Positions 18,075 to 59,113 of a stretch of DNA of 64,000 nucleotides are shown here, piece by piece. Source of the DNA: an uncultured bacterium (lineage in GTDB: Bacteria; Acidobacteriota; JAQAZP01). The position numbers and the translations under genes were made by a program. Position 1 is the first letter of the stretch; each line of letters opens with the position of its first letter. The stretch is taken from NCBI GenBank assembly GCA_965531145.1, contig CBESOE010000007.1, positions 36 to 64,035 of the forward strand, in the 5' to 3' direction. The notes below the pieces were generated by a model. That model had not been told where the DNA came from. It saw only the letters and a program-made list of their open reading frames with translations, and ran no database searches.

Positions 18075-18875
18075 TCAGTTTCGTGAGAGGCCTTTGCCTG
18101 CTTCCTTCAGATTCGCCGAGGCCGTCAGGTCCCGGGGGCTGAAATTCCCCCTCGCCGGAACGGCAGCGGGACTGTCGCTGTGGAGCTTGAACCCCAGGAT
18201 GTAGCCCATGGCGCAGGGGTGGACAGCCCCGTAGAGGAATGCCCACGCCAACTCTTCCAACGGGACGCCGAAGCCGTGGTAACCGGTCAGGTTCTGGATG
18301 TTCCATTGCTGCAGCCAGTGGGGCCACAGGGTAAATCCAGCTTTTATCAGAATAAAATAGGCCAGCGAAAAGCTGATGGCCCCGACGGCCGAAGCGGGCC
18401 AGATGTCCTTCATGGGTTTCTTCAGCACCAGTGCGATGCCCAGCATGCCGAACAGTGCCGCCGCCATGACCGGCATCCCCATCTGGCGAAGAACCAGCAG
18501 GCCGGCGAGAAAAGGCAGGAAGACCAGTGCATACCGTCTCATCATCGACGGCAGGTTGATGGTCCAACTGTAAGACCCCCGGAAGGGGGCATAGGCCAGG
18601 GTGCAGGCGATGATCCCCACTGAAAAAGAAAACAGAATGTCTTCCACACCGATGATGAAGGTGCTGAGCCTCACCGGATGCCAGTAGTCCGGAACAAAGA
18701 AGATTTCCAGCACCGCCGCCGGGGCGGCCAGCACTCCGCAGAGCAGGGTGGGCTTGCGATGGTTGTCGACCAGGACCAGGCAGGTGAGGGCCGCACAAAA
18801 CAGCATCAGGCTGAAAAATAAATAGGGGTAAGTCTGCAGGAAATTCACAAACAGGTCTTTCGCAGAGGCAACCAC
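18075..18875 (-). CDS. Lycopene cyclase domain-containing membrane protein (CrtYcd-like, two repeats)
   Basis: Polytopic membrane protein with two copies of the h-P-x-E-E-h motif (GVEDILFSF; GVPLEELAWAF), typical of heterodimeric-type lycopene cyclase domains. Confidence 0.4.
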   Translation of the reverse strand: MVASAKDLFVNFLQTYPYLFFSLMLFCAALTCLVLVDNHRKPTLLCGVLAAPAAVLEIFFVPDYWHPVRLSTFIIGVEDILFSFSVGIIACTLAYAPFRGSYSWTINLPSMMRRYALVFLPFLAGLLVLRQMGMPVMAAALFGMLGIALVLKKPMKDIWPASAVGAISFSLAYFILIKAGFTLWPHWLQQWNIQNLTGYHGFGVPLEELAWAFLYGAVHPCAMGYILGFKLHSDSPAAVPARGNFSPRDLTASANLKEAGKGLSRN

Positions 18876-19026
18876 CGAGGTCTATCAGGATGTGGTACCA
18901 TAAAATACGTTCGCGCCCGCTTCCGGGGCCCCGCTTCCGGGGCCCGGCAAATCATTCTAGCCGATGGGGTGACGGGGTCGCAACAAAACGCGGTTCCCGA
19001 CTATCGTGCGGCTACCGAGGGAGGGA

Positions 19027-19902
19027 ATGAGCCAGATCCGTTGCCAGGCAATCGAGCCGCTGGACGGAACGGGGCCCACAGTGCTCACCGTGGACGTGGA
19101 GGAGTGGTTCCACGTCTGCGGCGTGCCGGGTCTCGAGGGCCCTGAGCAGTGGGCTTCGCTTCCGAGCCGGGTGGACGCCGACGTGGACCGGCTGTTGGAA
19201 CTCTTCCAGCGGTCCGGCGCCCGGGCCACCTTTTTCGTTCTGGGCTGGCTGGCTGAAACCCGGCCAGGCCTGGTGTCCCGCATCGCAGAGGCCGGTCACG
19301 AGATCGCCAGCCACGGCCACCTGCACCAGCCGGTGAACCTCCTGGATCCGGAGACGTTCGAGGAGGATCTCGTCCGCTCGCTGGCCGTGCTGCACACCCG
19401 GACCGGGGCGGTGGTATCGGGATACCGGGCGCCCATGTGGTCCATCGGGGTGGGAGCAACGCCCTGGGCCTTCGAGATCATGGCCCGGCACGGCATCACC
19501 AGGGATTCGAGCCTCATCCGCGCCCCGGTTATCGGGGAGCCGGGTCACCCGCGGGAGGCCTGCAAACTTCTCCTGGACACCGGGGGCTGCCTGCGGGAAT
19601 TCCCGCCGCTGGCCGGTCGGCTCTTCGGGGTGGACGGTGTCTTTCTCGGTGGGGCCTGGCCGCTGCGTCTCTTTGGTCCCCGCCGGGCGATACGGGCGGC
19701 CCGGAAACTGACCGCCCGCGGCCTGCCCGCGGTCTTTTTCCTCCACCCCTGGGAACTGGACCCCGACCCACCGCGTTTTCCCATGCCCCGGGCCCAGCGG
19801 TTCGTCCACTATGCCGGTCTGAAACGTGGCCGGAATGTGTGGGAAACCATGCTCCGCGAACTGCCGTTCGTTTCCCTCGGTGAGGCGGCCAGATCTGCTT
19901 GA
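19027..19902 (+). CDS. Polysaccharide deacetylase family protein of the XrtA/PEP-CTERM-associated type (DUF3473-like)
   Basis: VLTVDVEEWFHV N-terminus and an NodB-type His/Asp set (EIASHGHLH). Strong RBS GGAGGGA at 19014-19024 ahead of the ATG at 19027. The family assignment is recalled from the TIGR03006-like family. Confidence 0.65.
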   Translation: MSQIRCQAIEPLDGTGPTVLTVDVEEWFHVCGVPGLEGPEQWASLPSRVDADVDRLLELFQRSGARATFFVLGWLAETRPGLVSRIAEAGHEIASHGHLHQPVNLLDPETFEEDLVRSLAVLHTRTGAVVSGYRAPMWSIGVGATPWAFEIMARHGITRDSSLIRAPVIGEPGHPREACKLLLDTGGCLREFPPLAGRLFGVDGVFLGGAWPLRLFGPRRAIRAARKLTARGLPAVFFLHPWELDPDPPRFPMPRAQRFVHYAGLKRGRNVWETMLRELPFVSLGEAARSA

Positions 19903-19932
19903 CCGTTAAGACCTTGTGCCATAAGGGATTTC

Positions 19933-19961
19933 TTGACACTCCGCCGGGTGGAACCTACAAT
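19933..19961 (+). promoter_or_regulatory. Sigma-70-like promoter for the fab-like operon (-35 TTGACA, 17-nt spacer, -10 TACAAT)
   Basis: TTGACA at 19933-19938 and TACAAT at 19956-19961, lying 80 nt upstream of the fabD-like start. Confidence 0.45.
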
Positions 19962-20040
19962 GCCCGGTGGACCGAAACAGGATATCCGGGGTGTCCGGCG
20001 GGGCTCTCCCGGTGACGATTGGCAGGTCACAGGAGTGGCG

Positions 20041-20946
20041 ATGAGGGCTTTTTTTTTCCCCGGCCAGATGTCCGAACACCCGGAGATGTGGCACAACCTG
20101 AAGGGCCGGGTGCCCGGGGCCGAGATGTGGCTCCAGCGTGCTCAAACGGCCTCCGGTCTGCCGTTGGCCGATTCCCTGGGTCGGGGGAGCGCCAAAAACG
20201 TCGACGACCTCACCGCCCAGGTGGCGGTGCTGGCGGTCAACGCAGCCTATGCCGCCTACCTGCGCCTCCGTGGTGTGGAACCGGCGGCCGTGGCCGGGCA
20301 CAGCCTCGGTTGCTACTCCGCCCTTGAGGCGGCCGGTGTGCTCCGCTTCGAGGATGCGGTGGGCATCGCGGTCAAGGTGCAGCAACTGGCAGAGCACGAG
20401 CTTGCCGGGTTTGATGGGGCCATGGGCGTGCTGATCGGCCACGGGCCGGAGAAGGTTGACCATGCCTGCGCTGCCGCGGGGAACGACGAGGCCATGGTGG
20501 CCAACGTCAACACGGCGAAGCAAGTGGTGATCTCGGGGCACGCGGCGGCGGTTGATGCGGTGCTCGCGGCTCTGGCTGAAAACTCCATGCGGGCGGAACG
20601 GTTGCATACGCGGATCCCGTTTCACAGCCGCTGGATGCAGCCGGTGGTGGACCGGCTGCTGGTCGAGGTGGACCCGGCGCTGTTCAGCCAGCCGCGGCTG
20701 ACGGTCTATTCGCATCTTGACGGCAGCCGTGTGGACACAGCTGCCGCGGCGCACCGGCTGATCTGCACCCAGATTGCCCGGCCGCTCTACTGGCCCCGGG
20801 CGCTGGAAGCCATGCGGGACGGTGGCTGCCGCCGTTTTGTCGAGGTGGGGCCCGGCGAGGTGCTGAGCCGCATGACCCGCTGGGTACTGCGTGACGTCGA
20901 GGTACAGACGGCGGAGAAGAACTTTGAGGATTTGCTCGGGGGCTGA
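20041..20946 (+). CDS. fabD: Malonyl-CoA:ACP transacylase
   Basis: FFFPGQMSEHPEM N-terminus. Active-site GHSLGCYSALEAAG. RBS AGGAG upstream of the ATG at 20041. The ORF track starts earlier at 19933, which is probably spurious. Confidence 0.85.
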   Translation: MRAFFFPGQMSEHPEMWHNLKGRVPGAEMWLQRAQTASGLPLADSLGRGSAKNVDDLTAQVAVLAVNAAYAAYLRLRGVEPAAVAGHSLGCYSALEAAGVLRFEDAVGIAVKVQQLAEHELAGFDGAMGVLIGHGPEKVDHACAAAGNDEAMVANVNTAKQVVISGHAAAVDAVLAALAENSMRAERLHTRIPFHSRWMQPVVDRLLVEVDPALFSQPRLTVYSHLDGSRVDTAAAAHRLICTQIARPLYWPRALEAMRDGGCRRFVEVGPGEVLSRMTRWVLRDVEVQTAEKNFEDLLGG

Positions 20947-21011
20947 ACAGCTCCCGATAACGATGTATCGTGCGCGGCCGGCGGGCCGGCCCGAGAGGAG
21001 TGGATCACACG

Positions 21012-21284
21012 ATGAGCGAGGATGACAAGTCGCTTTCCCTGAAAATGAAGAACCTGATCGTCAACCGGCTGAAGCTGGAGATCGAACCCGAAGAGATCGA
21101 GAATGACCAGACCCTGTTCGGTGAAGGGCTGGGCCTCGATTCCATCGATGCCCTCGAACTGGTGCTTGGCCTGGAACAGGAGTTCGGGGTCAAGATCGAG
21201 GACGAGGAGGTGGGGGTCAAGGCCTTTGCCTCCATCGATGCCCTGGTCGCCTTTGTCAAGGAGAAGGGTGTTCAATCCGCATGA
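21012..21284 (+). CDS. acpP: Acyl carrier protein
   Basis: About 90 aa and acidic. Phosphopantetheine attachment motif GLDSIDALEL. RBS GAGGAG upstream. Confidence 0.85.
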   Translation: MSEDDKSLSLKMKNLIVNRLKLEIEPEEIENDQTLFGEGLGLDSIDALELVLGLEQEFGVKIEDEEVGVKAFASIDALVAFVKEKGVQSA

Positions 21285-21763
21285 GCACAACCACCGGCGA
21301 CCTGGAGATACTGGACGCTCTGCCCCACCGCAGCCCGTTCCTGATGGTCGACCGGATCGTGGAACGCCGCGGAGGACACTCCTGCCTGGCACTGAAAAGG
21401 GTTTCTTTCGGTGATCCCTTCCTCCGCATCGGTTCCGGGGTGGTGCCGCCGGAACTGAATCCCTTTTTTCTGGTGGAGGCCATGTCGCAGACCGCGGCCC
21501 TGGCCGCCGTGGACCCGGACAACGGTTCGGCCCTGCCTGCCGGTGCGGGGCCCGGGCCTCCGCTGGTGGGCTTCCTCGCAGCCATACGGAATTTTCGGAC
21601 CCTGCGGCCGGCGGTACCCGGCGATACACTGGAGATCCGGGCCGAGGTGGTGGGCCGCTTCGGCGGGCTGGTCAAGGTGGTGGGTACGGTGGAGGTGGAC
21701 GGTGAGCTGATCGGTGAAGCCGAGCTGACACTCAGCGTTCCCCGAGAGGTGGAGAACGGGTGA
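21281..21763 (+). CDS. Hotdog-fold 3-hydroxyacyl-ACP dehydratase (FabZ/FabA-like)
   Basis: LPHRSPFLMVDRIVE matches the FabZ N-terminal motif (LPHRYPFLLVD). 160 aa. Its start overlaps the ACP stop (ATGA). Confidence 0.7.
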   Translation: MSTTTGDLEILDALPHRSPFLMVDRIVERRGGHSCLALKRVSFGDPFLRIGSGVVPPELNPFFLVEAMSQTAALAAVDPDNGSALPAGAGPGPPLVGFLAAIRNFRTLRPAVPGDTLEIRAEVVGRFGGLVKVVGTVEVDGELIGEAELTLSVPREVENG

Positions 21764-23022
21764 CCAACGAGGTGACCAACGAGAAGACGGCAGTTGCTTC
21801 CCGCCGGGTGGTGATCACCGGGTTGGGGGCGGTTTCCGCGCTGGGCCCCGATGTGCCGTCCCTGCTTGCCGGGGTTGTGGAGGGCCGCTGCGGTATCCGG
21901 CCGGTGACCCTCTTCGACACCTCACCATTTCGCACACACACCGGTGGGGAACTGCTTGGATTTGATGCCGGGGCCCACTTCAGCCGGCGCGAACAGCGGC
22001 GGCTCTCCCGGGCCGACATGGCCGGGCTGGTGGCGGCCGCGGAAGCCCTGGGCGGCGCCCGGGCCGGCTCCGGGCCGATCTGCGATCCGGACCGGGTGGG
22101 CGTTATTCTCGGCGGCGGCGTTGGGGGGCTTTTCGACAGCGAGGCCTATTACCGCACAGTGCTGGGCCGGGGTTGGAAATCGGTGCCCGCCACCCGGGCC
22201 CTGGGACATTTCCCCTGCGCCACGGCCGACCGCATCGCCGAGCGCTGGGGCTTCGGCGGTCTGCGCACCACCGTGGTCACCGCCTGCTCGTCCAGCACGC
22301 TGGCCATCGGCCAGGCATTCGACGCCATCCGCACCGGGGCGGTGGAGATGGCGGTCACCGGCGGCAGCGATACCCTGAGCCGCCTGACCTACAGCGGGTT
22401 CAATTCCCTCCGCTCGGTGGACCCCGATGTCTGCCGGCCCTTCGACGCCGGCCGCAAGGGACTCTCCCTGGGCGAGGGGGCGGCCATCCTGGTCCTCGAG
22501 CCGCTGGACGTGGCCCTGGATCGCGGTGCCCCGATCCACGGGGAGGTGCTGGGCTGTGGCATGTCCTCGGACGCCCACCACATGACCGCACCGCACCCGC
22601 AGGGGGAGGGGGCAGCCCTGGCCATGGAGCGGGCCATCAGCCAGGCCGGGCTGGTTCCCGGGCAGGTGGACTACATCAATGCCCACGGCACCGGGACCCC
22701 GCACAACGACCTCGCCGAAACCAGGGCGATCCACCGCACCTTCGGCGAGAATGGGAAATCGATCCCGGTGAGCTCCACCAAGTCGATGCTGGGCCACTGT
22801 CTCGGTTCCGCCGGCGCCATGGAGGCCCTGGTCACCATCCTCGCCCTGCGGGACCGGTTCATTCCGCCCACGGCCAACCTGGAGCAGCCCGACCCGGAGT
22901 GCGACCTGGCCCATGTGCCACTGGTCAGCCGGCCGGGGACTCCCGAGGTGGGGATATCCAACTCCTTTGCTTTTGGCGGCAACAACGGCTGTCTGGTCCT
23001 GAGGAGATACCATGAGCTCTGA
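21760..23022 (+). CDS. fabF: Beta-ketoacyl-ACP synthase (KAS I/II type, catalytically complete)
   Basis: Active-site Cys in VVTACSSSTLAIG. His-His in NAHGTGTPHND and KSMLGHCLGSAG. GTG start overlapping the upstream stop (GTGA). Confidence 0.85.
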   Translation: MTNEVTNEKTAVASRRVVITGLGAVSALGPDVPSLLAGVVEGRCGIRPVTLFDTSPFRTHTGGELLGFDAGAHFSRREQRRLSRADMAGLVAAAEALGGARAGSGPICDPDRVGVILGGGVGGLFDSEAYYRTVLGRGWKSVPATRALGHFPCATADRIAERWGFGGLRTTVVTACSSSTLAIGQAFDAIRTGAVEMAVTGGSDTLSRLTYSGFNSLRSVDPDVCRPFDAGRKGLSLGEGAAILVLEPLDVALDRGAPIHGEVLGCGMSSDAHHMTAPHPQGEGAALAMERAISQAGLVPGQVDYINAHGTGTPHNDLAETRAIHRTFGENGKSIPVSSTKSMLGHCLGSAGAMEALVTILALRDRFIPPTANLEQPDPECDLAHVPLVSRPGTPEVGISNSFAFGGNNGCLVLRRYHEL

Positions 23023-24265
23023 GACCCGGCCGGCCGAAACTGGAGTGGTGGTTACCGGCATGTCCGCCGTGTCGCCCATGGGAACCGGCAGTGAGCCGCT
23101 GCTCCGGGGGCTCTGGTCGGGGGAAAACGCCTGGCGTCCGGTCCCGGAGGGGCCCCTGGCGGGGCAGCGGGCCCGGCTGGCGGCCCTGGTCCAGGACTTC
23201 GAACCACGGGCGCACATCCCGGTGATGAAACTGCGCCGGATGGACAACTGCACCCGGTTCTCGGTGGTGGCCGCCCAGCTGGCTTTCGAGCACGCCGGCC
23301 TGGCGGAGGAGGACCTCTCCTCCTGCGGGGTCGTCTTCGGCACCGGCACCGCCGGCTCCACCTCGGTGGCCGAGTATCTTCAGGGACTGCTGGTGGACTC
23401 GGCGGAGGGGCAGTTCCCCATGCTCTTTCCCAACACCGTGCCCAATGCACCGGCCGGCCAGGTGGCCATCCGTTTCGGCATCCGCGGGCCCAACGCCACG
23501 GTGAGTCAGCGGGAGAGTTCCGGCCTGCACGCCCTGGCCCGGGCCGCGGAGTTCATCCGTCTCGGCCGATGCCACTGCGTGCTGGTGGCCGGGGTGGACG
23601 AGTATTCCACCGAGTTGCTGGCCTTCTACGACCGGATGGGCTTTCTCTCCCCGGGCCGCTCCGGAGGTGAGGAGTCCTGCCGGCCCTTTTCCGCACGCCG
23701 CAACGGCTGGATGGTGGGGGAGGGGGCCTATGCCCTGGTGCTGGAATCGGCCGATCACGCCCACCGGCGTGGTGCGCCGCTGCTGGGCCGCCTCCTCGGC
23801 ACCGGTTGGAGCGGCAGCACCTGCTCCACCTACCGCTGGCCCGAGGAGCACGACGCCTATGTCCGCTGCATGGGGGGGGCGCTCCGCAGCAGCGGCCTGG
23901 ACGCCGGTGCGCTGGGGGCGGTGATGGCGTCGGCCAACGGCAACCAGGTGCTGGACCGGATGGAGGCCCTGGCCCTGGGCGAACTGTTCGCTGACGGCGG
24001 CGGTATGCCGCCGGTCACCGCGGTGAAATCAATACTTGGCGAGTCGGGAGCCTGCGGTGTGGCCCAGGCCCTGGCGGCGCTGGGTGTGCTGGAGCGGGGC
24101 ACGGTGCCCCCCACCACCGGCGGCGAGGCCGGTGACGCCGGCGGCCCGCAGGTGAACCTGGTGACCGGTGAGGCGCTGCACCCGCCACGGGCTCCCGAAG
24201 CGGTGCTGGTGAACAGTTTCGCGTCCGGCGGCAGCAATGTCAGTATGGTGATCGCCCGCGGGTGA
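23012..24265 (+). CDS. Ketosynthase-like protein lacking the catalytic triad (chain-length-factor / KS-beta-like)
   Basis: Thiolase fold of KAS length. Where the catalytic Cys should be, the sequence reads TVSQRESSG (Gln/Glu instead of Cys). The two His motifs are also absent (ANGNQ; ILGESGACG). Overlaps the KS stop by 11 nt. Confidence 0.7.
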   Translation: MSSETRPAETGVVVTGMSAVSPMGTGSEPLLRGLWSGENAWRPVPEGPLAGQRARLAALVQDFEPRAHIPVMKLRRMDNCTRFSVVAAQLAFEHAGLAEEDLSSCGVVFGTGTAGSTSVAEYLQGLLVDSAEGQFPMLFPNTVPNAPAGQVAIRFGIRGPNATVSQRESSGLHALARAAEFIRLGRCHCVLVAGVDEYSTELLAFYDRMGFLSPGRSGGEESCRPFSARRNGWMVGEGAYALVLESADHAHRRGAPLLGRLLGTGWSGSTCSTYRWPEEHDAYVRCMGGALRSSGLDAGALGAVMASANGNQVLDRMEALALGELFADGGGMPPVTAVKSILGESGACGVAQALAALGVLERGTVPPTTGGEAGDAGGPQVNLVTGEALHPPRAPEAVLVNSFASGGSNVSMVIARG

Positions 24266-24296
24266 ATGGCCGCACCGGCGGCGGCGGAGGAGAGCG

Positions 24297-24779
24297 GTGG
24301 GAACCGAGAACAGCCCCCTGGGACGGCGCAACGCGGATGGCTGGTGGGAACTGAGGCTCCGTGTCCGCTTCTCCGAGGTCGATTCTTACGGGGTGGTCTG
24401 GCACGGTCGCTACCTCGCCTGGTTCGAGGAGGCGCGCAACGACCTGGCCCGCGGCTACGGGTTTACCCCGTCGGTGCTGGCCCGGAGCGGATACCAGCTG
24501 CCGGTGCGGGATGTTTCCCTGACCTTCAAATCACCGGCCGGCCTCGACGACGAGGTGCTGGTGGGCATTCTCTTCCATCCCACGGAAACCGCACTGATCG
24601 AGTTTGAATACCGGGTGGTGGATGCGGAATCCGGGCGGCTGATGGTCACCGGTAAGACCCGGCAGGTGGTCACGCGGGTTGATCACGAATTGTTGCTGAC
24701 CTACCCCCGGCCGATCCGGGAGGCCCTGGACCGTCTCAGGCAGGACCAGTCCGCATCGGGGGGCAACCATGAGCGGTGA
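24297..24779 (+). CDS. 4HBT/YbgC-type hotdog acyl-CoA/acyl-ACP thioesterase
   Basis: RFSEVDSYGVVWHGRYLAWFEEAR is the YbgC/4HBT catalytic-region signature. 160 aa. Confidence 0.65.
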   Translation: MGTENSPLGRRNADGWWELRLRVRFSEVDSYGVVWHGRYLAWFEEARNDLARGYGFTPSVLARSGYQLPVRDVSLTFKSPAGLDDEVLVGILFHPTETALIEFEYRVVDAESGRLMVTGKTRQVVTRVDHELLLTYPRPIREALDRLRQDQSASGGNHER

Positions 24780-25728
24780 ACGGAACGGCGATGCAGACCG
24801 TGCCCGCGTCCGCCCGGTCTGTCCCTCCTGCCGCAATTCCCTGGCGGCGGAGAGTGACGGGCCTTCCACCTGTTCGTCCTGCGGCGCCGTCTATTCCCGC
24901 ATCCCCTCCGGCCATCTGCGGCTTCTGCCCGGGGATGCCGGTGGCTTTCGGGACTGGTGGCTCGACGATGAGCAGAAACGGGCCCGGTTCATGGGCCAGT
25001 ATGTTGAACGCGAGGAAGCGGGGGAGCGGCGGCTGGCCCGGGAGTTCCTGCTCCCCCTGACCCGGCAGCTGGCCGGCCAGGGGCCGCTGCGGCGGGTGCT
25101 CTCCGTGGGCTGCGGTTCCGGTGAGGATCTGGAACTGCTGCGTGGAGCCGGCCTGGACACCTGCGGTGTGGACAGCGGCGGGCGCACCCTGCGCTGGGGG
25201 GACAAGGAACGTTCTCCGGACCGTTACTTCATGGCCGACGCGCTGCAGCTGCCGTTCACCGACGGCGAATTTGACCTGGCCTATTCCCTCGGGGTCATCG
25301 AGCACGTGGGCACGGTGGGGGACAGCCTGGAACTGGCCGCGGATGCCGGTGAACTGCGCCGGCGGTTTGCCGCTTCGGTGGCCCGGGTGGTTCGGCCCGG
25401 GGGCTGGATCTTCATCAGTTGCCCCAATCGCACCTTTCCCTTTGACTTCGCCCACGGCGCCGGACGTTTCGGGTTCCGCTTTCACGGTCCCGGAGACTTC
25501 CTCCTTTCCTACGGTGACGTGAAGCGGCTGTTCATCGACCATGCGGGCTGCCAGTCGATCCGGCCGCTCTCCATGAAGGGCTATCTCGACCTGGCCCAGG
25601 CCGCTGCCGGCGGGGGGATGCTGATGCGGATGGCCGCGCCGCTCTTCGGCCTTTACTTGCATGCATTGCCGCGGCCTCTTTATACTTCTCCGCTATACCC
25701 GGCTGTATTGGCCCTTATCAAACGCTGA
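24769..25728 (+). CDS. Class I SAM-dependent methyltransferase with N-terminal Cys4 zinc-ribbon
   Basis: CPSCRN...CSSCG ribbon. Motif I VLSVGCGSGEDL. Methyltransf_11-like post-I region (ADALQLPFTDGEFDLAYS). Confidence 0.7.
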   Translation: MSGERNGDADRARVRPVCPSCRNSLAAESDGPSTCSSCGAVYSRIPSGHLRLLPGDAGGFRDWWLDDEQKRARFMGQYVEREEAGERRLAREFLLPLTRQLAGQGPLRRVLSVGCGSGEDLELLRGAGLDTCGVDSGGRTLRWGDKERSPDRYFMADALQLPFTDGEFDLAYSLGVIEHVGTVGDSLELAADAGELRRRFAASVARVVRPGGWIFISCPNRTFPFDFAHGAGRFGFRFHGPGDFLLSYGDVKRLFIDHAGCQSIRPLSMKGYLDLAQAAAGGGMLMRMAAPLFGLYLHALPRPLYTSPLYPAVLALIKR

Positions 25729-25742
25729 ACAGCGGAGCGACG

Positions 25743-26798
25743 ATGATCAAGCGAAACATCTGTGTGGTCACCTCCCACGTGCCGATGGTGTTCGGCGGGC
25801 ACCTGATCATCGCCCGTTCACTGGTCAGCGCCCTCAAGGACATGGGCTACAACTCGGATGTGATCTACACCCCCCAGAACCGTTTCGGGCGCCAGCTCTC
25901 GGCCTACCTGGCCAACCGGCTCACCGATGTGGGCCGTACCGGCGGCGACGAGGTGGTGGACCAGATCATCTCCCTGCGCTACCCCAGCTATGCGGTCAAG
26001 CACCCGCTCCACGTCTGCTGGCTGAACCACCGCATGCGCGAATACTACGATCTCTGGGAAGATTTCCTCGGGGTGATCCCCACCGGCAAGGGCAAACTCA
26101 AGGAGCGCTTCCGCCGCCGGCTGATCCAGCGGCTGGACAACCACCTGCTGAAGCGCAACGTGAAGAACCTCTACGTGATTTCGGGGACGATCAGGAAACG
26201 GCTGGAAACCTGGGGCGGGATCCCGGCCCAGGTGCTGCTGCCGCCGCCGCCCCTGGGCCGGGACTACCACACCGACAGTTACGAGAACTTCATCTTCACC
26301 GTGTCCCGCCTGCACAAGCTGAAGCGGATCAACCTGCTGCTGGACGCCTTCATGCTGGTGCGCGACACCGACGTCAAGTGCCTGATCGCCGGCGAGGGCG
26401 ACGAATACGACCGGCTGGCCAAGCGGATCAAGGACAACGATCTGGAGGGGCGGGCCATTCTCCTCGGCCGGGTGAGCGACCAGGAACTGGCCGACTACTA
26501 CGCCCGCTGCCGGGCGGTTTTCTTCGGGCCGCGGAACGAGGACTTCGGCTTCGTCACCATCGAGGCCTTCCGCAGCCGCAAGTGCGTCATCACCTGCCAT
26601 GACAGTGGCGGCCCGCTGGACCTGGTGGAAGACGGTGTTTCGGGTTTTATCACCCGGCCCGATCCCACCAGGATCGCCGAGCGGATCGACCAGCTGGTGG
26701 CCGATCCGGGCCTGGCCGAACGGATGGGCCAGGCGGGGTACGAGGCGAGTCTGCCGGTCACCTGGGAGAACGTGGTGCGGACACTGGTGAAGATATGA
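25743..26798 (+). CDS. Glycosyltransferase family 1 (GT4, GT-B fold)
   Basis: The C-terminal half carries the GT1 EX7E-type region (GFVTIEAFRSRKCVITCHDSGGPLDLVEDGVSGF). Confidence 0.75.
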   Translation: MIKRNICVVTSHVPMVFGGHLIIARSLVSALKDMGYNSDVIYTPQNRFGRQLSAYLANRLTDVGRTGGDEVVDQIISLRYPSYAVKHPLHVCWLNHRMREYYDLWEDFLGVIPTGKGKLKERFRRRLIQRLDNHLLKRNVKNLYVISGTIRKRLETWGGIPAQVLLPPPPLGRDYHTDSYENFIFTVSRLHKLKRINLLLDAFMLVRDTDVKCLIAGEGDEYDRLAKRIKDNDLEGRAILLGRVSDQELADYYARCRAVFFGPRNEDFGFVTIEAFRSRKCVITCHDSGGPLDLVEDGVSGFITRPDPTRIAERIDQLVADPGLAERMGQAGYEASLPVTWENVVRTLVKI

Positions 26799-27577
26799 TG
26801 ATCTCCGCGGGGCAACCGGCCCATCTCACGGTGGTGATCCCGGCCTACAACGAGGAGAAGCGGATCGGACCGACCCTGGAACGGATCTGCGGCTACCTGG
26901 AGAAGCGTTCCTATCCCTGGGAGATCGTGGTGGTCAATGACGGCAGCAGGGACGGGACGGTCCAGATCGCCAGGGAACTGCTGGCCGGCTGTGAACACCA
27001 CACGGTGATCGACCGCAAGTTCAACCGGGGCAAGGGCTACTCGGTGCGGCAGGGAATGCTGGCCGGCCGCGGGCGCTTCCTCCTCTTTTCCGACGCCGAT
27101 CTCTCCACGCCCATCGAGGACGTGGAGCGACTGCTGCCCCCCCTGGAGTCCAGGGAGGTGCAGGTGAGCATCGGTTCCCGGGCACTGCGTGACTCCCGGG
27201 TGGAGGTACACCAGCCCTGGTGGCGTGAGACCATGGGCAAGAGCTTCAACCTCTTCGTGCGGCTGATCGCCCTCGGCGGCCTCCACGACACCCAGTGCGG
27301 GTTCAAGTGCTTTACCCGCGAGGCGGCAAAGGCCATCTTCAGCGTGGCCCGCATCGACGGCTTCGGTTTTGACGTGGAAGCCCTGTACCTGGCCCGCAAG
27401 TTCGGCTACGGGGTCAAGGAGATCGGTGTGCGCTGGGTCAACTCGCCCGATTCGAAGGTCCACCCGCTCTCCGATTCGTCGCGGATGCTGGCCGATCTGC
27501 TGCGCATCCGTTTCACCGACCTCCGGGGAGGATACCGGTCCGGAAACGGCCTGGATCGCCGGGGGCGGCAAGGTTGA
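26795..27577 (+). CDS. Glycosyltransferase family 2 (polyprenyl-phosphate beta-glucosyltransferase-like)
   Basis: VVIPAYNEEKRI...VVVNDGSRDGT...FSDADLSTP are the GT-A signatures. Overlaps the GT1 stop (ATGA). Confidence 0.8.
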   Translation: MMISAGQPAHLTVVIPAYNEEKRIGPTLERICGYLEKRSYPWEIVVVNDGSRDGTVQIARELLAGCEHHTVIDRKFNRGKGYSVRQGMLAGRGRFLLFSDADLSTPIEDVERLLPPLESREVQVSIGSRALRDSRVEVHQPWWRETMGKSFNLFVRLIALGGLHDTQCGFKCFTREAAKAIFSVARIDGFGFDVEALYLARKFGYGVKEIGVRWVNSPDSKVHPLSDSSRMLADLLRIRFTDLRGGYRSGNGLDRRGRQG

Positions 27578-32475: not shown

Positions 32476-33207
32476 ATGAGCGGAACGCAGGCGGGGCAGG
32501 AAAACGGCCTGATTTTCGACGCCCGGGGCCTGACCAAGGTCTACCACATGGGCGAGGTGGAGGTTCACGCCCTGCGTGGCGTGGATTTTCAGCTGCGTCA
32601 GTCGGAGTTCTCCGTGCTGCTGGGGCCCTCGGGCAGCGGCAAATCCACCCTGCTCAACATCCTCGGCGGGTTGGATACCCCCACTGCCGGCCAGGTCTTT
32701 TACCGCGGCAAAGAGATCACCCTGGTGGGCGACGCCGAGCTGACTCAGTATCGCCGGCACCATGTCGGTTTTGTCTTCCAGTTCTACAACCTGATTCCCA
32801 GTCTCACCGCCCGGGAGAACGTGGCCCTGGTCACCGAGATCGTGCCCGAACCGCTGACCCCGGTGGCGGCGCTGGAACTGGTGGGGTTGGGAGACCGGGT
32901 GGATCACTTCCCGTCCCAGCTCTCGGGCGGCGAGCAGCAGCGGGTGGCCATTGCCCGGGCCATCGCCAAACAGCCCGACGTGCTGCTCTGCGACGAGCCC
33001 ACCGGCGCCCTGGACGTCTCTACCGGCATCGTGGTGCTGGAGGCCATCGAGACGGTGAACCGCGAGCTGGGCACCACCACCGCGGTGATCACCCACAACG
33101 CGGCCATTTCCGAGATGGCCGATACGGTGTTGCGGCTCTCCAACGGCAAGATCGCTTCGGTGGAGCACAACACGACCAAGATCCACCCCCGAGAGCTTCA
33201 CTGGTGA
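32476..33207 (+). CDS. ABC transporter ATP-binding protein (MacB/DevA-type)
   Basis: Walker [13 protein letters not shown] signature [14 protein letters not shown]. Walker [20 protein letters not shown] upstream. Confidence 0.85.
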
Positions 33208-33211
33208 CACC

Positions 33212-35575
33212 ATGCGACCGCTGAATCTCAAGCTGTTTCGCGACCTGTGGCAGATCAAGGGCCAGGCCCTGGCCATCAGCATGGTCATCGCCGCCGGGGT
33301 GGCGATGTTCGTGGCCTACATCAGCACCTTCCAGTCGCTGGACCTGACCCAGAACACCTACTACGAGCGCTACCGCTTCGGCGACGTGTTCGCCTCGCTG
33401 AAGCGGGCCCCCCTGCGGCTCCGCGAGCGGATCGAGGAGATCCCAGGCGTGGCCCGGGTGGAGACCCGGGTCGTGGTGGGGGTGAACCTCGATGTGGAGG
33501 GATCCGAGGAGCCGCTCACCGGCCGGCTGATCTCGATTCCCGAGCTGGACCGGGCGACGCTGAACGACGTCTTTCTGCGCAAGGGCCGCTACATCGAGCC
33601 CGACCGGCAGGACGAGGTGCTGGTCACCGAGGGGTTCGCCCTGGCCCACGGCCTGGAGCCGGGGGACAGCGTGGCCGCGGTGATCAACGGCCGCCGGCGC
33701 GAGCTGGAGATCGTCGGCATCGCCCTCTCACCGGAGTATGTCTACAACATTGCGCCCGGGGCGATGATGCCCGACGACAGCCGCTTCGGCATCTTCTGGA
33801 TGGAGCAGAAAGCCCTATCCGCCGCCTTTGACATGGAGGGCGGTTTCAACGACGTCGCCCTCTCCTTGATGCCCGGGGCCCAGGAGGACGAGGTGATCAC
33901 CCGCCTCGACCGCCTGCTGGAACCGTACGGCGGGCTGGGAGCCATTCCCCGCGCGCTCCAGCCGTCCCACTTCTACCTCGATGCCGAGCTGGCCGGCCTC
34001 AAGGGCGCCGGGCTGATGATCCCGGTAATCTTCTTTGCCGTGGCCGCTTTCCTGCTCAACGTGGTGTTGCTGCGCATCGTGGCCGTCCAGCGGCCGCAGA
34101 TCGCCGCGCTCAAGGCGCTGGGCTACACCAACGTCGAGATCGGCATGCACTACACCGGCTGGAGCCTGGTGGTCTCGCTGGTGGGCGCCGTCATCGGGGT
34201 GGCCAGCGGCGCCTGGCTCGGTTCGGCCATGACCACGCTCTACGGCGATTTTTTCCGCTTCCCGATCCTCGACTACCGGCTGGCCCCCGCCGTGCTGGTG
34301 GGGGCGGTGGTGGTGAGCGTCATCGCCGCTGTGCTGGGCGCTTTCGGCTCGGTGAAGCGGGCGGTGAAGCTGCCCCCGGCCGAGGCCATGCGCCCCGAAC
34401 CACCGTCGGGCTACGGTGTGAGCTGGGTCGAACGGCTGGGCCTCAAGCGGTTCTTCAGCCAGCCGGCTCGGATGATCATGCGCAACATCCAGCGGCGCCC
34501 CTGGCGCACCTTTGCTTCCATCACCGGCATCTCGTTCGGTGCGGCGATGATGGTGGTGGGGATGTTCTGGATCGACGCCATGGACCTGATGATGGACGTG
34601 CAGTACAACGTGGCCCAGCGCCAGGACATCACGGTCACCTTTGTGGAGCCGGCCTCTTCTCGCTCGCTGCACGAGATCGAGCGGATGCCCGGCGTGGTCT
34701 ACGCCGAGACGCTCCGTTCGGTGCCGGTGCGGCTGCGCTACGGCCACCGCTCGCGCATGGCTTCCATCACCGGCCTTGAAGCCGGGGCGCGTCTGAGCCG
34801 GGTGGTGAACACCGACTTCCGCCCGGTGACCATCCAGCCCCAGGGCCTGGTGCTCTCCTCCAAGATGGGTGAGATCCTGGGCGTGAAAGCCGGCGACGAA
34901 CTGATCGTCGAGGTGCTGGAGGGCCGGCGGCCCAAACGCACGGTGCTGGTCACCGAGCTTGTGGACGAGTTCCTTGGCACCTCGGCCTACATGGAGAACT
35001 CGGCGCTCCATGCCATGTTGCGCGAGGGGCCAAGCCTCTCCGGAGCCTTTATCCAGGTCGATTCGATCCACGCCGATGAGCTCTACCGGCGGCTCAAGCT
35101 GGTGCCCTTTGTCGCCGGGGTGGCACTCAAGTCGGCGGCGGTGGACAGTTTCTACGACACCATCGGCGAGAGCCTGGGCATCATGATCTTCTTCAATGTC
35201 CTCTTTGCCGGGATCATCGCCTTTGGCGTGGTCTACAACGCGGCACGGATCTCGCTTTCCGAGCGGGGCCGCGAGCTGGCCAGCCTGCGAGTGATGGGCT
35301 TCACGCGGGGGGAGATCTCCTTTATCCTGCTGGGGGAACTGGCCCTGGTGACCCTGGTCTCCCTGCCCGTGGGCATGGCGCTGGGTTACTGGCTGTCGGC
35401 GCTGGTGGTCACCGCTTACGACACCGAAGTGTACCGTTTTCCGCTGGTGGTCTCATCGAAAACATACGCCTACGCAGCGCTCACCGTGGGCGTGGCGGCG
35501 CTGATCTCCGGGGTGGTGGTCAAGCGTAAACTGAATAACCTCGATCTCGTTGAAGTTCTGAAGACCAGGGAGTGA
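33212..35575 (+). CDS. Large ABC transporter permease with two FtsX domains (DevC/YbbP-like, about 10 TM)
   Basis: 787 aa built as two repeated modules. Each has a TM helix, a periplasmic MacB-PCD-like domain and an FtsX 3-TM bundle (e.g. [15 protein letters not shown]; [18 protein letters not shown]). Confidence 0.8.
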
Positions 35576-36777
35576 TCAATCAAATGAAACCGAAGCGTAA
35601 AACCGTCATCATCTGGTCCATTGTCATCCTGCTGGTCCTGCTCCTGGCCTGGGCCATGCGCCCCAAGCCGGTGGAAGCCGACTTTGCTTCCATCACGCGC
35701 GGTTCAATCCAGGTGACCATCGACGAGGAAGGGGAGACCCGGGTGCGCGACCGCTTCACCGTGTCGGCGCCCATGGCCGGCCGTGTGCTGCGTATCGAGC
35801 TGGAGCCCGGTGAGCCGGTGGTGGGCGGCGAGACCGTGGTGGCCACCTTCAGGCCCACCGATCCGGTGCTGCTGGATGCCCGCACCAGGGCCCAGAATGA
35901 GGCCCGGGTGGGGTCGGCCAAGGCCGCCCTGGGCACGGCCGAAGCCGAGGTCGAGCAGGCCCGGGCCGAACTGAATTATGCCCTTGGCGAGGAGAAGCGC
36001 TACCGCCGGCTGGCCGAGGACGGGTTCGTTTCCAGCGAGCGGCTGGAGAAGGCGGAGCTGGATGCGCGGACCAGGGAAAAGGGCCTCTCCGCCGCGGAGT
36101 TTTCAGTTCGTTCGGCCGAGCAGGAACTGGCCGTTGCCCGGGCATCGCTGGTGGAAGCCCCCAGGGCCGGCGACAAGCGGAACATCATCATCCGCGCCCC
36201 GGTGGACGGGGTGGTGCTGCAGCGCTTTCACTGGAGCGAGGGGGTGGTGCCGGTGGGCGAACCGCTGATCGAGATCGCCGACCCCGCCGACCTGGAGATC
36301 GTTTCCGACCTGCTCTCCTCCGATGCGGTGAAGGTCCGCCATGGCCAGAAGGTGCTCATCGAGCGCTGGGGCGGGGAAAAGAACCTGGAGGGTGTGATCC
36401 GCCGCGTAGAGCCATACGGCTTCACCAAGTACTCCGCCCTGGGCGTGGAAGAGCAGCGGGTCAATGTCATCGTCGATTTCACCAATCCCCGGGAGGCATG
36501 GGCCGCCCTGGGGGATGGCTATCGGGTGGAACTGCGCATCGTGATCCAGGAGGCCGATGACGTCCTGCTTGTGCCCACCAGCAGCCTCTTCCGCGTGGAC
36601 GAGGACCAGGCCGTGTTTGCCGTGCGCGACGGCAAGGCCACGCTCACCACCGTGGAGATCGGCAAGCGCAACGGCCTTCACGGCGAACTGCTCTCAGGCC
36701 TGGAGGAAGGCGCTACGGTTCTCGTGCATCCCGGTGATGCCATCGAGGACGGGGTGAAGGTGGCGGAGCGGTCGTGA
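35572..36777 (+). CDS. HlyD-family membrane fusion protein (MacA/DevB-like periplasmic adaptor)
   Basis: N-terminal TM anchor. Long coiled-coil region (AEAEVEQARAELNYA...). Beta-barrel/lipoyl-like RAPVDGVVLQ motif. Confidence 0.8.
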   Translation: MINQMKPKRKTVIIWSIVILLVLLLAWAMRPKPVEADFASITRGSIQVTIDEEGETRVRDRFTVSAPMAGRVLRIELEPGEPVVGGETVVATFRPTDPVLLDARTRAQNEARVGSAKAALGTAEAEVEQARAELNYALGEEKRYRRLAEDGFVSSERLEKAELDARTREKGLSAAEFSVRSAEQELAVARASLVEAPRAGDKRNIIIRAPVDGVVLQRFHWSEGVVPVGEPLIEIADPADLEIVSDLLSSDAVKVRHGQKVLIERWGGEKNLEGVIRRVEPYGFTKYSALGVEEQRVNVIVDFTNPREAWAALGDGYRVELRIVIQEADDVLLVPTSSLFRVDEDQAVFAVRDGKATLTTVEIGKRNGLHGELLSGLEEGATVLVHPGDAIEDGVKVAERS

Positions 36778-36853: not shown

Positions 36854-37096
36854 TTAACGATCCCTGCCGATTTTTCTACGCAGTCCATACAGACCGGCAA
36901 TGCCACTGCCCAGGAGAATCATCGTCGCCGGTTCGGGGACCGGGGTCGGTGATGCATGGGTAGGCCGCTTTGAGCCGCCAGGGCCGGTCTGGTTGCCGAA
37001 TCCGTCATAACTGTCTGCCATCACCACTGTTTGACCGATCAGGAGAATCCCCAGAACCAGTAACAGCACCATCATGAGTTGATGCGAATGACTCAT
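36854..37096 (-). CDS. PEP-CTERM sorting-domain micro-protein (80 aa; mature region about 27 aa)
   Basis: Signal peptide MSHSHQLMMVLLLVLGILLIGQTVVMA, then DSYDGFGNQTGPGGSKRPTHASPTPV. The C-terminus is VPEPATMILLGSGIAGLYGLRRKIGRDR: PEP motif, TM helix and an Arg/Lys cluster. RBS GGAGGACAGAG lies immediately upstream of the ATG at 37096. The longer 164-codon ORF in the track starts at a GTG and is rejected. Confidence 0.7.
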   Translation of the reverse strand: MSHSHQLMMVLLLVLGILLIGQTVVMADSYDGFGNQTGPGGSKRPTHASPTPVPEPATMILLGSGIAGLYGLRRKIGRDR

Positions 37097-37174
37097 CTCT
37101 GTCCTCCCCGTGGTCCGCTTTTGATGAGTGATTGCGGACTCGTCGAGATCGATCAATACCCGCTCAGTCAACAC

Positions 37175-37190
37175 TGCAACCCTCGTGCCA
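37175..37190 (-). promoter_or_regulatory. Sigma-54 (RpoN) -24/-12 promoter TGGCACGagggTTGCA upstream of the PEP-CTERM micro-protein
   Basis: The minus strand reads TGGCACG-N4-TTGCA, a full match to the sigma-54 consensus (TGGCACG-N4-TTGCW). It lies about 80 nt upstream of the ATG at 37096. Confidence 0.55.
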
Positions 37191-37344
37191 ATTGATCTAC
37201 CAATGTAATCTATTGCAAGAAAGTGGCTTGTTGACTTCGGGCAATTCCGTTCCACCCGGATTCGCTTCCCAGCAGGAAAAGATTTTCCATCGGGAGTTGG
37301 AAAAATAGTTCCGTCGATGAATCGTCGTTGTCCCACCTGATTGT

Positions 37345-38102
37345 TCACGGCGAGGTGCTGTCGGGGCTCGAGGAGGGGGACACGGTGATCGTGCAGCCGG
37401 TGATCAGGGCATCGGAGCCGTCCGAACAGGAGATGCCGCCGGCACCATGCGGGGAACCGTATTCCGGCCTGGTGCCGCGGATGGTGCAGCCGATGATTTC
37501 CGGGGAGGAATCATTGCAGAAGATGGCACCGGCGTATGAAGTTTGAAAAAGAGCGATGTTGTCCTCGATCACGCAGTTTTCGATCAGCGCATCGGCGTTG
37601 TAATAGCAGAGAATAGCCAAACCAGGGCCCCTGGCGCTGCAGTCCGTGATGACGCAATCTTTGATAGTGGGCGACGCCACGTAACAATTGATGCCGCCCC
37701 CACCGCCATTTGTCCACAGGTGTGCGAAATCGTCAACCAGGCCGTTTTTATGGTGAATCCCTCAACCACCGAATCCCGGCCTTCGCCGTTGTGGAAGTAA
37801 AATCCCCGGTGCTGATCTGAAACAGTGCCGTCGCAGTCGATGATGCAGGTTTCCGCGCCGTTCCCGGAGCGGACCGTGATCGCCCTGCCCTGGAAATCGA
37901 GGTCCCGGTTGCCCGGGCCTTCGTATACACCGTCAGCCACCAGCACGGTGTCTCCATTCACCGCAGCGTCAATGCCGGCCTGGATGGTGGACTGATCGGC
38001 CGGGACACGGATCTCGGCGGCCAGGGTGGCGGGGGAGTGAAGGAGGAGAAGAGTGAGTGAATAAAATGCGGCCCATTTCATGCGCTGCGCACACATTGTC
38101 AA
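37345..38102 (-). pseudogene. Secreted right-handed parallel beta-helix repeat protein interrupted by a -1 frameshift in an A5/T5 homopolymer (or a sequencing error)
   Basis: The N-terminal part (38102 down to about 37750) and the C-terminal part (37761 down to 37345) are in different frames. Both carry beta-helix repeats (GFTIK..; ASPTIKDCVITDC; ALIENCVIEDN; IIGCTIRG; ALITGCTIT). The frames rejoin if one A is added to the cataaaaacggc tract (plus-strand T5 at 37745-37749). Signal peptide MKWAAFYSLTLLLLHSPATLAAE. Confidence 0.55.
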
Positions 38103-58558: not shown

Positions 58559-59113
58559 TCCGATCACTCCTCCTTTCGGCCGGTACGGGGGAGCACTGGC
58601 TCCGCCGCTGGCGGGCCGATCTGTTTTTTTTCTTTTTTCTTGTTGTTATGTATTGCTTGTTCCGCCGCGTTGTTCACCGGTTACGGTGCGGCCTGTCAGG
58701 CATTCACCTCCTTTCTTCCTCCACCGGCCCGCAAGGCCGGACGTTGACCGATGTCACGGCCGGATTCGTACCTACTCAACCGCTTGCACACCAAGGGTAT
58801 CGGCAACAGGGCCCGCCCTGTTGAATGGCATCGGATCGATTCTCCGAACCCCATTGCCTGCAGAGTGCGGTTGTTCCGGTCATTGAAACCAGTCCAGAAC
58901 ACATGAGTTGCAATTTTACTGCCATGATTAGTTGGTTAAACTCTTATGGCCCGTTTATACCAAATTGGTGAAAACTTTACAAGTTACCTCCGGTCGGACC
59001 GTGGGTGGCTGTTTGGGAAGCTCCTTTTCTATCCATTTTCTTGGAGATTGGTTCAAGATTTTGAAGTGTGGCGCAAGGAGGGAGCCGGGTGATGATCCCG
59101 GCATCCCTGCATA

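Follow-up and report, generated by a model that had tools for sequence, protein, structure and literature searches.

An 80-residue PEP-CTERM protein of an uncultured Acidobacteriota bacterium as a probable minimal exosortase substrate

In a 64,000-nt stretch of DNA from an uncultured bacterium of the Acidobacteriota (contig CBESOE010000007.1; the whole stretch is hereafter called the window), a short reverse-strand gene encodes an 80-amino-acid (aa) protein with a predicted signal peptide at one end and a PEP-CTERM sorting signal at the other (Table 1). The bacterium is GC-rich (about 65%), and its GatA shares at most 58% identity with that of any named taxon and 73-83% with metagenomic proteins. 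We consider it probable, at roughly 0.7, that the short gene is functional, is transcribed on its own and encodes a minimal exosortase substrate, and that it stands here as a displaced solo cassette. What is unusual about the protein is its small size; the system to which it belongs is known, not new. Like the PEP-CTERM/exosortase proteins (EpsH, XrtA; PMC1569441), it joins a signal peptide to a C-terminal signal made of PEP, a transmembrane (TM) helix and, at the very end, a basic cluster, it is Ser/Thr/Asn/Gly-rich and otherwise free of homology, and its relatives' copies lie inside an exosortase/EpsI exopolysaccharide (EPS) locus. It differs in the size of its mature part, only 26 residues, and in that the gene here lies away from any exosortase.

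The open reading frame (ORF) translates, in three successive parts, as MSHSHQLMMVLLLVLGILLIGQTVVMA, DSYDGFGNQTGPGGSKRPTHASPTPV and PEPATMILLGSGIAGLYGLRRKIGRDR before the stop codon. Hydropathy gives two hydrophobic segments (residues 7-27 and 57-72) with a hydrophilic core between them; the hydrophobic core of the signal peptide spans residues 7-21, and hydropathy and the family alignment together place VMA at -3 to -1 of the predicted cleavage site, followed by D. The mature core has a Gly/Ser/Thr/Pro composition and carries the motifs G[FY]G, N35-Q-T and K43-x-P45. PF07589 matches residues 52-75 with 33.5 bits (cut-off 20.7) and TIGR02595 residues 53-76 with 27.6 bits (cut-off 16), leaving 4-5 residues to the C-terminus. 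The initial annotation, made from the sequence alone, had called this a PEP-CTERM micro-protein of 80 aa with a signal peptide and a mature segment of about 27 residues, and the call holds: the ORF is exact, both models score above their curated cut-offs, and 26 residues precede PEP, or 29 if PEP is kept. Gene calls in three other public assemblies give this 80-aa gene too, and the sequence is identical across the four independent assemblies. A regular-expression scan of all six frames of the window returned no further credible PEP-CTERM tail.

None of the named NCBIfam PEP-CTERM subfamilies (PepA NF033554, THxN NF038125, XDP1 NF041927, EDSAP-1, cistern and others) matched above its cut-off; the best scores were 24-29 bits against cut-offs of 60-125, and these matches were limited to the tail. 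The best-scoring named model was PepA, a protein of flocculation in Zoogloea and Aquincola, whose gene also has an RpoN-type promoter. However, the PepA match (28.6 bits, cut-off 80) covers only the last 25 residues, and our protein has no equivalent of the body of PepA, whose model is 261 positions long.

A word-indexed search and an HMMER profile search found homologs, 75-88 aa long, whose alignments with the window protein cover the full length. This family, which we call family 1, comprises P0002, P0003, P0004, P0006, P0027, P0028 and P0030, plus an 85-aa gene in locus L074; P0002 is 75% identical to the window protein (BLASTP). The alignment keeps the motif Q[ST]VA[MV]A directly before the cleavage site, a Gly-rich stretch with G[FY]G, the helix and the basic tail. 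A K.P motif lies 6-7 residues before [SA]PTPVPEPAT and is kept in eight of nine members. The AxA-type cleavage and PEP motifs are present in nearly all members, the sole exception being P0028, which reads PVAEP. Conservation of the 27-residue core, which the initial annotation had suggested examining, turned out to be partial, with G[FY]G and K.P kept. The N-Q-T sequon that it had pointed to is indeed present but is not a family trait, since N-x-S/T occurs in one column of the three closest members only (NQT, NKS, NES) and is absent from the other six of nine. The residue at -2 of N35 is Phe rather than Asp or Glu, and the site is thus not of the D/E-x-N-x-S/T (PglB) type. Shuffled 26-aa cores yield a sequon by chance in 18% of cases, and the window showed no oligosaccharyltransferase.

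The ratio of nonsynonymous to synonymous substitution rates (dN/dS, Nei-Gojobori) over the whole gene is 0.23-0.29 against the homologs, and 0.23 against the 75%-identical one. By region, it is 0.05-0.2 in the tail and 0.14-0.40 in the core. It follows that the ORF is translated and that purifying selection acts on it, most strongly on the sorting signal. A metagenome scan for the family-specific block PTPVPEPATMILLGSG gave matches only on contigs identical to the window, while in a scan of species-representative genomes, which do not include the species of the window, most matches were to the tail alone.

PEP-CTERM genes have been described as single-gene operons in which the non-coding DNA upstream exceeds 200 nt and a sigma-54 motif lies, on average, 71 nt from the start (PMC1569441). 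The gene in the window has the same layout: it forms an operon by itself, has over 200 nt of non-coding DNA upstream, and carries a sigma-54 -24/-12 element some 70-80 nt from the start. Single-gene operons, sigma-54 control and Ser/Thr/Asn richness are all features already described for PEP-CTERM proteins (PMC1569441), and transcription of pepA, from the promoter TGGCAC...CTGCTT, is RpoN-dependent by experiment, with PrsK/PrsR (PMC9850573). The element in the window, TGGCACGAGGGTTGCA, is the sole exact TGGCAC-N5-TTGCW in the 64 kb, where 0.12 are expected. TGG[CT]A[CT]-N5-TTGCA also stands 57-95 nt 5' of the ATG in 7/7 family-1 loci (the window, L004, L005, L006, L007, L073 and L074) despite their diverged surroundings. 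No sigma-70-like promoter or intrinsic terminator was detected at the gene.

Two further DNA motifs accompany the promoter. A box of the form [AGT]TTAC[ACG] lies at -19/-20 in L004, L006 and L007, as well as in the promoters of a second small family (family 2, below) in L006, L074 and L077; its 3' end is about 13 nt from the -24 element, or 44 nt in L073. The two GGAA-N6-TTCC dyads upstream are the only matches to this pattern in the window. The pair recurs at -96 and -120 in L004, and single dyads occur in L074 (-98), L073 (-164), L077 (-118) and L075, while about 3% of shuffled upstream regions hold such a dyad. The dyads are probably the enhancer (upstream activating sequence) of a sigma-54 activator. 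The known motif 1 of PEP-CTERM genes spans 17 nt, ends in TTTACA and precedes the sigma-54 motif by about 63 nt (32-92) (PMC1569441). In the layout here, with dyads near -100 and the TTAC box at -19, neither is demonstrably motif 1; of the two, the dyads, at -96 to -122, are the better candidates for an enhancer.

With transcription expected to start near 37165, the leader is about 69 nt long. The strong ribosome-binding site noted in the initial annotation is the GGAGG at 37107..37103, 6 nt from the ATG, and GGAG or GAGG is kept at this position in all leaders compared. A leader box, GGGTATTGATCGATC in the window, recurs with the consensus GGGnAGTGATCGA at equivalent positions in L004, L006, L007 and L073; RNAalifold found no conserved RNA structure in this region and Rfam gave no match to it. 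Elsewhere in the window, a sigma-54-like site with one mismatch (TGGCAGTAAAATTGCA, 58909..58924, minus strand) lies about 340 nt 5' of a CarboxypepD_reg/TonB-dependent-receptor-like gene (55796..58567, minus strand).

The link of the 80-aa protein to an exosortase is indirect but strong, and comes from the loci of its relatives, where homologs adjoin the exosortase/EpsI pair. In L004, an exosortase gene stands divergently beside the 75%-identical homolog; TIGR02602 scores 179.8 bits (cut-off 105.55) over a fragment of 239 aa. L073 has an exosortase fragment upstream of its family-1 gene and a TIGR03098-like acyl-CoA ligase downstream, and L006 has such a ligase downstream. Using the L004 exosortase as query, we found the long contigs L074, L075/L076 and L077. 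These show a canonical EPS locus of the Wzz/tyrosine-kinase/sugar-transferase/deacetylase kind, in the gene order Poly_export, Wzz/GNVR, AAA, ParA-like kinase, Bac_transf, XrtA-system deacetylase, acyl carrier protein (ACP) and acyl-CoA ligase, then one small gene or two, encoded on the opposite strand, followed by the exosortase (274-280 aa), EpsI, a family 2 glycosyltransferase (GT2), Wzy_C, GT4 and an AsnB-type amidotransferase. The scores of the diagnostic models are given in Table 1. Directly 5' of the ligase, the 85-aa ACP (L074 6717..6974; L075 7470..7727) matches best the ornithine-lipid ACP model NF052616, with 58.9 bits (cut-off 130); its position in these XrtA-like loci hints that the exosortase locus may include a pathway for acyl modification.

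Translated, the small genes between ligase and exosortase are family 1 and a further family, family 2, of 65-79 aa with the pattern MSKFF...APTPVPEP[LV][ST].ALLGGGLVGLYGLKKKFG.D. In relatives, a family-1 gene usually has a family-2 gene after it. L004, L006 and L074 carry both, and so probably does L007, where what looks like the start of a family-2 gene follows the family-1 gene on a contig too short to reach an exosortase or ligase. L075 has family 2 alone, and L077 a family-1 remnant with family 2. In L074 and L075, the products of both families score below the cut-offs of the named subfamilies, with tail-only matches. The D. vulgaris pDV XrtA locus has no adjacent micro gene annotated, and the family-1/family-2 pair is therefore specific to this lineage.

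Table 1. Features of the micro PEP-CTERM gene and its upstream region in the window, model scores for the exosortase loci of relatives, and other micro PEP-CTERM genes. Coordinates are those of the window unless a locus is named.
Feature	Coordinates	Strand	Details
Micro PEP-CTERM coding sequence (family 1)	36854..37096	-	80 aa, stop codon included
Signal peptide, residues 1-27	37016..37096	-	predicted signal-peptidase I site between VMA and DS; hydropathy and family motif Q[ST]VA[MV]A before the cut
Predicted mature core, residues 28-53	36938..37015	-	DSYDGFGNQTGPGGSKRPTHASPTPV; 26 aa, ~2.6 kDa
PEP-CTERM sorting signal	36857..36943	-	P52-V-P-E-P, TM helix ATMILLGSGIAGLYGL, basic tail RRKIGRDR; PF07589, TIGR02595
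Shine-Dalgarno GGAGG	37103..37107	-	6 nt 5' of ATG
Leader box	37147..37161	-	GGGTATTGATCGATC, family consensus GGGnAGTGATCGA; 15-30 nt 3' of -12 element
Sigma-54 -24/-12 element	37175..37190	-	TGGCACGAGGGTTGCA; ends 78 nt 5' of ATG
TTAC box (ATTACA)	37204..37209	-	19 nt 5' of -24 element
Two GGAA-N6-TTCC dyads	37275..37288 and 37299..37312	-	98 and 122 nt 5' of -24 element
Boundary scar, relic of HlyD-family adaptor 3' end	37344..37398	+	55 nt, imperfect direct repeat
Exosortase of relatives' loci (L074, L075)			TIGR02602, 215-222 bits; cut-off 105.55, passes
Exosortase of relatives' loci, XrtA-specific model			TIGR03109, 191-200 bits; cut-off 208; best subtype, slightly below
EpsI of relatives' loci			TIGR02914, 110 bits; cut-off 42.8, passes
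Deacetylase of relatives' loci			TIGR03006, 361 bits; cut-off 276, passes
Micro PEP-CTERM gene, ~51-56 aa (Bryobacteraceae)	L061 1794..1961
Micro PEP-CTERM genes, ~51-56 aa (Stellaceae)	L064 ~2020..2384
Micro PEP-CTERM gene, ~51-56 aa (gammaproteobacterial metagenome-assembled genome)	L030 125..280

To see how unusual the size is, we gathered 58 genes from species-representative genomes, chosen by the PTPVPEP[AL]T tail alone. Most encode 170-390 aa and 3-4 encode fewer than 100 aa. The products of the micro genes in L061, L064 and L030 (Table 1) have about 5-10 residues between signal peptide and PEP; L064 carries two of them in tandem, with a sigma-54-like site before the first. The profile search added about 20 more representatives of 70-103 aa that align end to end and have cores either rich in Gly/Asn/Ser/Asp or built from NGNHYG repeats. 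Micro PEP-CTERM proteins thus recur as a minority class. Within it, P0074, P0097 and P0145 form a distinct low-complexity subclass whose entire core consists of NGNHYG-type Asn/Gly/His/Tyr repeats. No description of micro PEP-CTERM proteins or of the exosortase-adjacent pair was found in the literature searched, which did not cover the 2012 exosortase survey. At the other extreme of size, P0026 (2500 aa), P0029 (1375 aa) and P0031 (410 aa) consist of 2-10 head-to-tail units, each a signal-peptide-like helix, a domain, a PEP-CTERM and RRRR, with no stop between units. This topology is self-consistent for a polyprotein that signal peptidase and exosortase would divide, but an artefact of gene calling or recoding could explain it too.

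Haft, Payne and Selengut reportedly described, in 2012, dedicated exosortase/archaeosortase subsystems with one or few substrates encoded beside the enzyme. Families 1 and 2 resemble these in lying directly beside the exosortase gene in relatives. They differ in that the enzyme is XrtA-like and accompanied by EpsI in a large EPS locus, the 'many-substrate' type rather than a specialised subtype, and in that the substrates are far smaller than the dedicated targets described.

A functional minimal substrate would be made as follows. Transcription would need RpoN and a PrsR-type enhancer-binding activator. The pre-protein would be exported by Sec and cleaved after VMA27, and would stay anchored in the inner membrane by its C-terminal helix up to the cut by an XrtA-type exosortase at or near PEP. 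The product would be a disordered Gly/Ser/Thr/Pro peptide of 26-29 residues, transferred to the exosortase's acceptor in an EPS or cell-surface pathway; PepA has likewise been proposed to bind, or be linked to, EPS (PMC9850573). Selection would act chiefly on the recognition region (K.P....PTPVPEP plus helix) and far less on the 'cargo'. The scheme parallels LPXTG/sortase A in its tripartite C-terminal signal, N-terminal signal peptide and proposed transpeptidation to a surface polymer, but the enzyme fold and the motif are unrelated, and this organism has an outer membrane.

That the micro-protein serves as a carrier, primer or anchor peptide, as the initial annotation proposed, is speculation. 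A further reading, which we hold to be unlikely, is that families 1 and 2 are cargo-less substrates in the exosortase reaction cycle: a primer, cap or anchor that XrtA ligates onto nascent EPS or a lipid, or a reporter peptide whose processing feeds back on the sigma-54 two-component regulator. In the first case, XrtA would use the conserved K.P....PTPVPEP segment as its handle, and a modification might come from the ACP and acyl-CoA ligase next door.

The alternative that survives best, itself improbable in our judgement, is that these proteins are a cofactor or signal rather than cargo: a pseudo-substrate that occupies or primes XrtA, or the source of a cleaved membrane remnant or a released 26-aa peptide that a PrsK-type kinase would sense as a report of exosortase activity. 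In streptococci, the cleaved LPXTG 'C-pep' is sensed by an intramembrane two-component system, which offers an analogy. Conservation centred on the recognition region and tail rather than the core fits this idea, as does the fixed position of families 1 and 2 beside xrt, whose divergent regulatory region they share, and the 5-10 residues before PEP in the smallest products are too few for structural cargo. However, the core dN/dS and the kept G[FY]G and K.P motifs fit a functional mature peptide, and the lack of such an annotated gene at the D. vulgaris XrtA locus means that a micro gene is not generally required by exosortases.

Several observations weigh against a functional substrate gene. 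Neither an exosortase nor EpsI, PrsK/PrsR or a sigma-54 activator was found in the window (Pfam/NCBIfam searches of about 50 ORFs and six-frame tblastn), and none of them in about 15 kb of extra flank (10 kb on the left side, 5 kb on the right), which leaves about 80 kb in all with no exosortase. The annotated ORFs of the window include no protein carrying a sigma-54-interaction domain, and the nearest exosortase homologs all come from other samples. Of an XrtA-type EPS locus, the window has only an ACP and a relative of the deacetylase (TIGR03006, 205 bits, cut-off 276; 43% identical to the L075 deacetylase), 15-18 kb from the micro-gene. One family-1 locus, L005, also has no adjacent exosortase. 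The n-region of the signal peptide has His and no Lys or Arg, in which the homologs differ. The GC content at third codon positions (GC3) of the micro-gene is 0.59, against 0.8-0.9 in its neighbours; because of this value and the scarred region with its frameshifted beta-helix gene, described below, a recent loss of function is possible.

The micro-gene is convergent with a HlyD-family gene whose stop lies at 36777, leaving a gap of 76 nt, and the encoded adaptor belongs to a DevA/MacB-like ABC exporter. The initial annotation was right about this placement, but the tie to a lipid or export locus that it drew from it is not supported: no homolog shares these neighbours, none of the homolog loci has a HlyD/exporter neighbourhood, and a 55-nt rearrangement scar bounds the gene. 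With synteny absent from all homolog loci, we rejected the idea that the micro-gene works together with the HlyD/MacB-like exporter or with the lipid cluster. The scar is 76% identical to 36677..36731 (plus strand) in the intact adaptor gene, with differences mainly at third codon positions, and encodes HGEVLSGLEEGDTVIVQP, against HGELLSGLEEGATVLVHP in the adaptor, a C-terminal adaptor motif. As the differences are mostly synonymous, the relic derives from a different, once-functional adaptor gene. Together, the relic and 36677..36731 bracket exactly the micro-gene plus its promoter, a cassette of about 460 bp. We read this as a solo family-1 cassette displaced from an exosortase locus by rearrangement, which would now stand by chance beside the DevBCA/MacB-like exporter, its adjacency to HlyD and the lipid genes being incidental.

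On that side there is also a lipid/glycolipid-type cluster (18075..27577) with lycopene-cyclase-like, deacetylase (the TIGR03006 relative above), acyltransferase, ACP, FabA-like, two ketosynthase, thioesterase, methyltransferase, GT1 and GT2 genes. It is followed by an oligopeptide-type ABC importer and then a DevA/FtsX/DevB-like exporter (32476..36777). By gene content, the cluster and this exporter resemble glycolipid export systems.

On the other side lies a gene for a secreted right-handed beta-helix protein (37345..38102, minus strand) with a frame split near 37680-37750 that is found in three other assemblies too. Its two ORFs (38102..37584 and 37680..37345, minus strand) have a signal-peptide start, are split across frames and have no C-terminal anchor; PF13229 matches the second with 38 bits. 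Over its last 18 codons the gene runs antisense to the adaptor relic and, given this and the frame split, it is probably a frameshifted, 3'-truncated pseudogene. The micro-gene might be a decaying remnant, either the tail of a larger PEP-CTERM gene such as this one or a non-functional displaced copy. The anchorless beta-helix ORFs on the same strand would suit such an origin, and the lower GC content of the region, the relic repeat and the low GC3 of the micro-gene are in keeping with decay. We nonetheless think it very unlikely: the micro-gene has its own signal peptide and ribosome-binding site, a full conserved sigma-54 promoter separates it from the beta-helix ORF, equally long homologs stand beside unrelated neighbours, dN/dS against the 75%-identical homolog is 0.23, and the sequence is identical in four assemblies. 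We rejected fusion with, or descent from, the beta-helix gene on the grounds that promoter and signal peptide are the micro-gene's own and that its homologs have other neighbours.

There is slightly less still to be said for an uncleaved two-helix membrane hairpin, in which a signal-anchor and the C-terminal helix would hold a short periplasmic loop and the PEP-CTERM-like part would be retained only as a helix. Two hydrophobic segments with 26-29 hydrophilic residues between them would suit this topology, and so would a window without an exosortase, but the AxA-type and PEP motifs are kept in nearly all family members and the homologs adjoin an exosortase, making it a slim prospect.

The least credible alternative is a longer product. 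The reading frame is open back to a GTG at 37348, giving a 164-aa form, and one cluster representative, P0001, is called at 105 aa from a TTG at 37171; yet the 84 extra codons of the long form have a GC3 of 0.49 (0.8-0.9 in genuine genes of the genome), the dyads, TTAC box and sigma-54 element all lie within the extension, the TTG is 4 nt past the -12 element and 5' of the expected transcription start, the upstream regions of homologs keep DNA motifs and not protein sequence, and the signal peptide would end up internal, so that a longer product has next to no chance of being real. Both long forms were rejected because the promoter elements sit within the extension, which has no coding GC3 signature. 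The initial annotation had named the longer frame as the danger to its start choice; the short form is the true gene.

For annotation, this means that the 80-aa call is right, that the 105-aa and 164-aa calls are wrong, and that adjacency to the HlyD/ABC exporter should not count as functional linkage. The conserved promoter, with its paired GGAA-N6-TTCC dyads, TTAC box and sigma-54 element, provides a cis-regulatory model for PEP-CTERM genes in an uncultured lineage outside the Proteobacteria-centred description. For the questions, posed since 2006, of where exosortase A cuts and what it attaches the protein to, a natural substrate with a mature part of just 2.6-3 kDa, encoded next to the enzyme in relatives, would be an ideal handle for mass spectrometry. 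If the cargo-less reading were true, the 18-32-residue mature peptides of families 1 and 2 would be the simplest probes of exosortase A chemistry and its acceptor.

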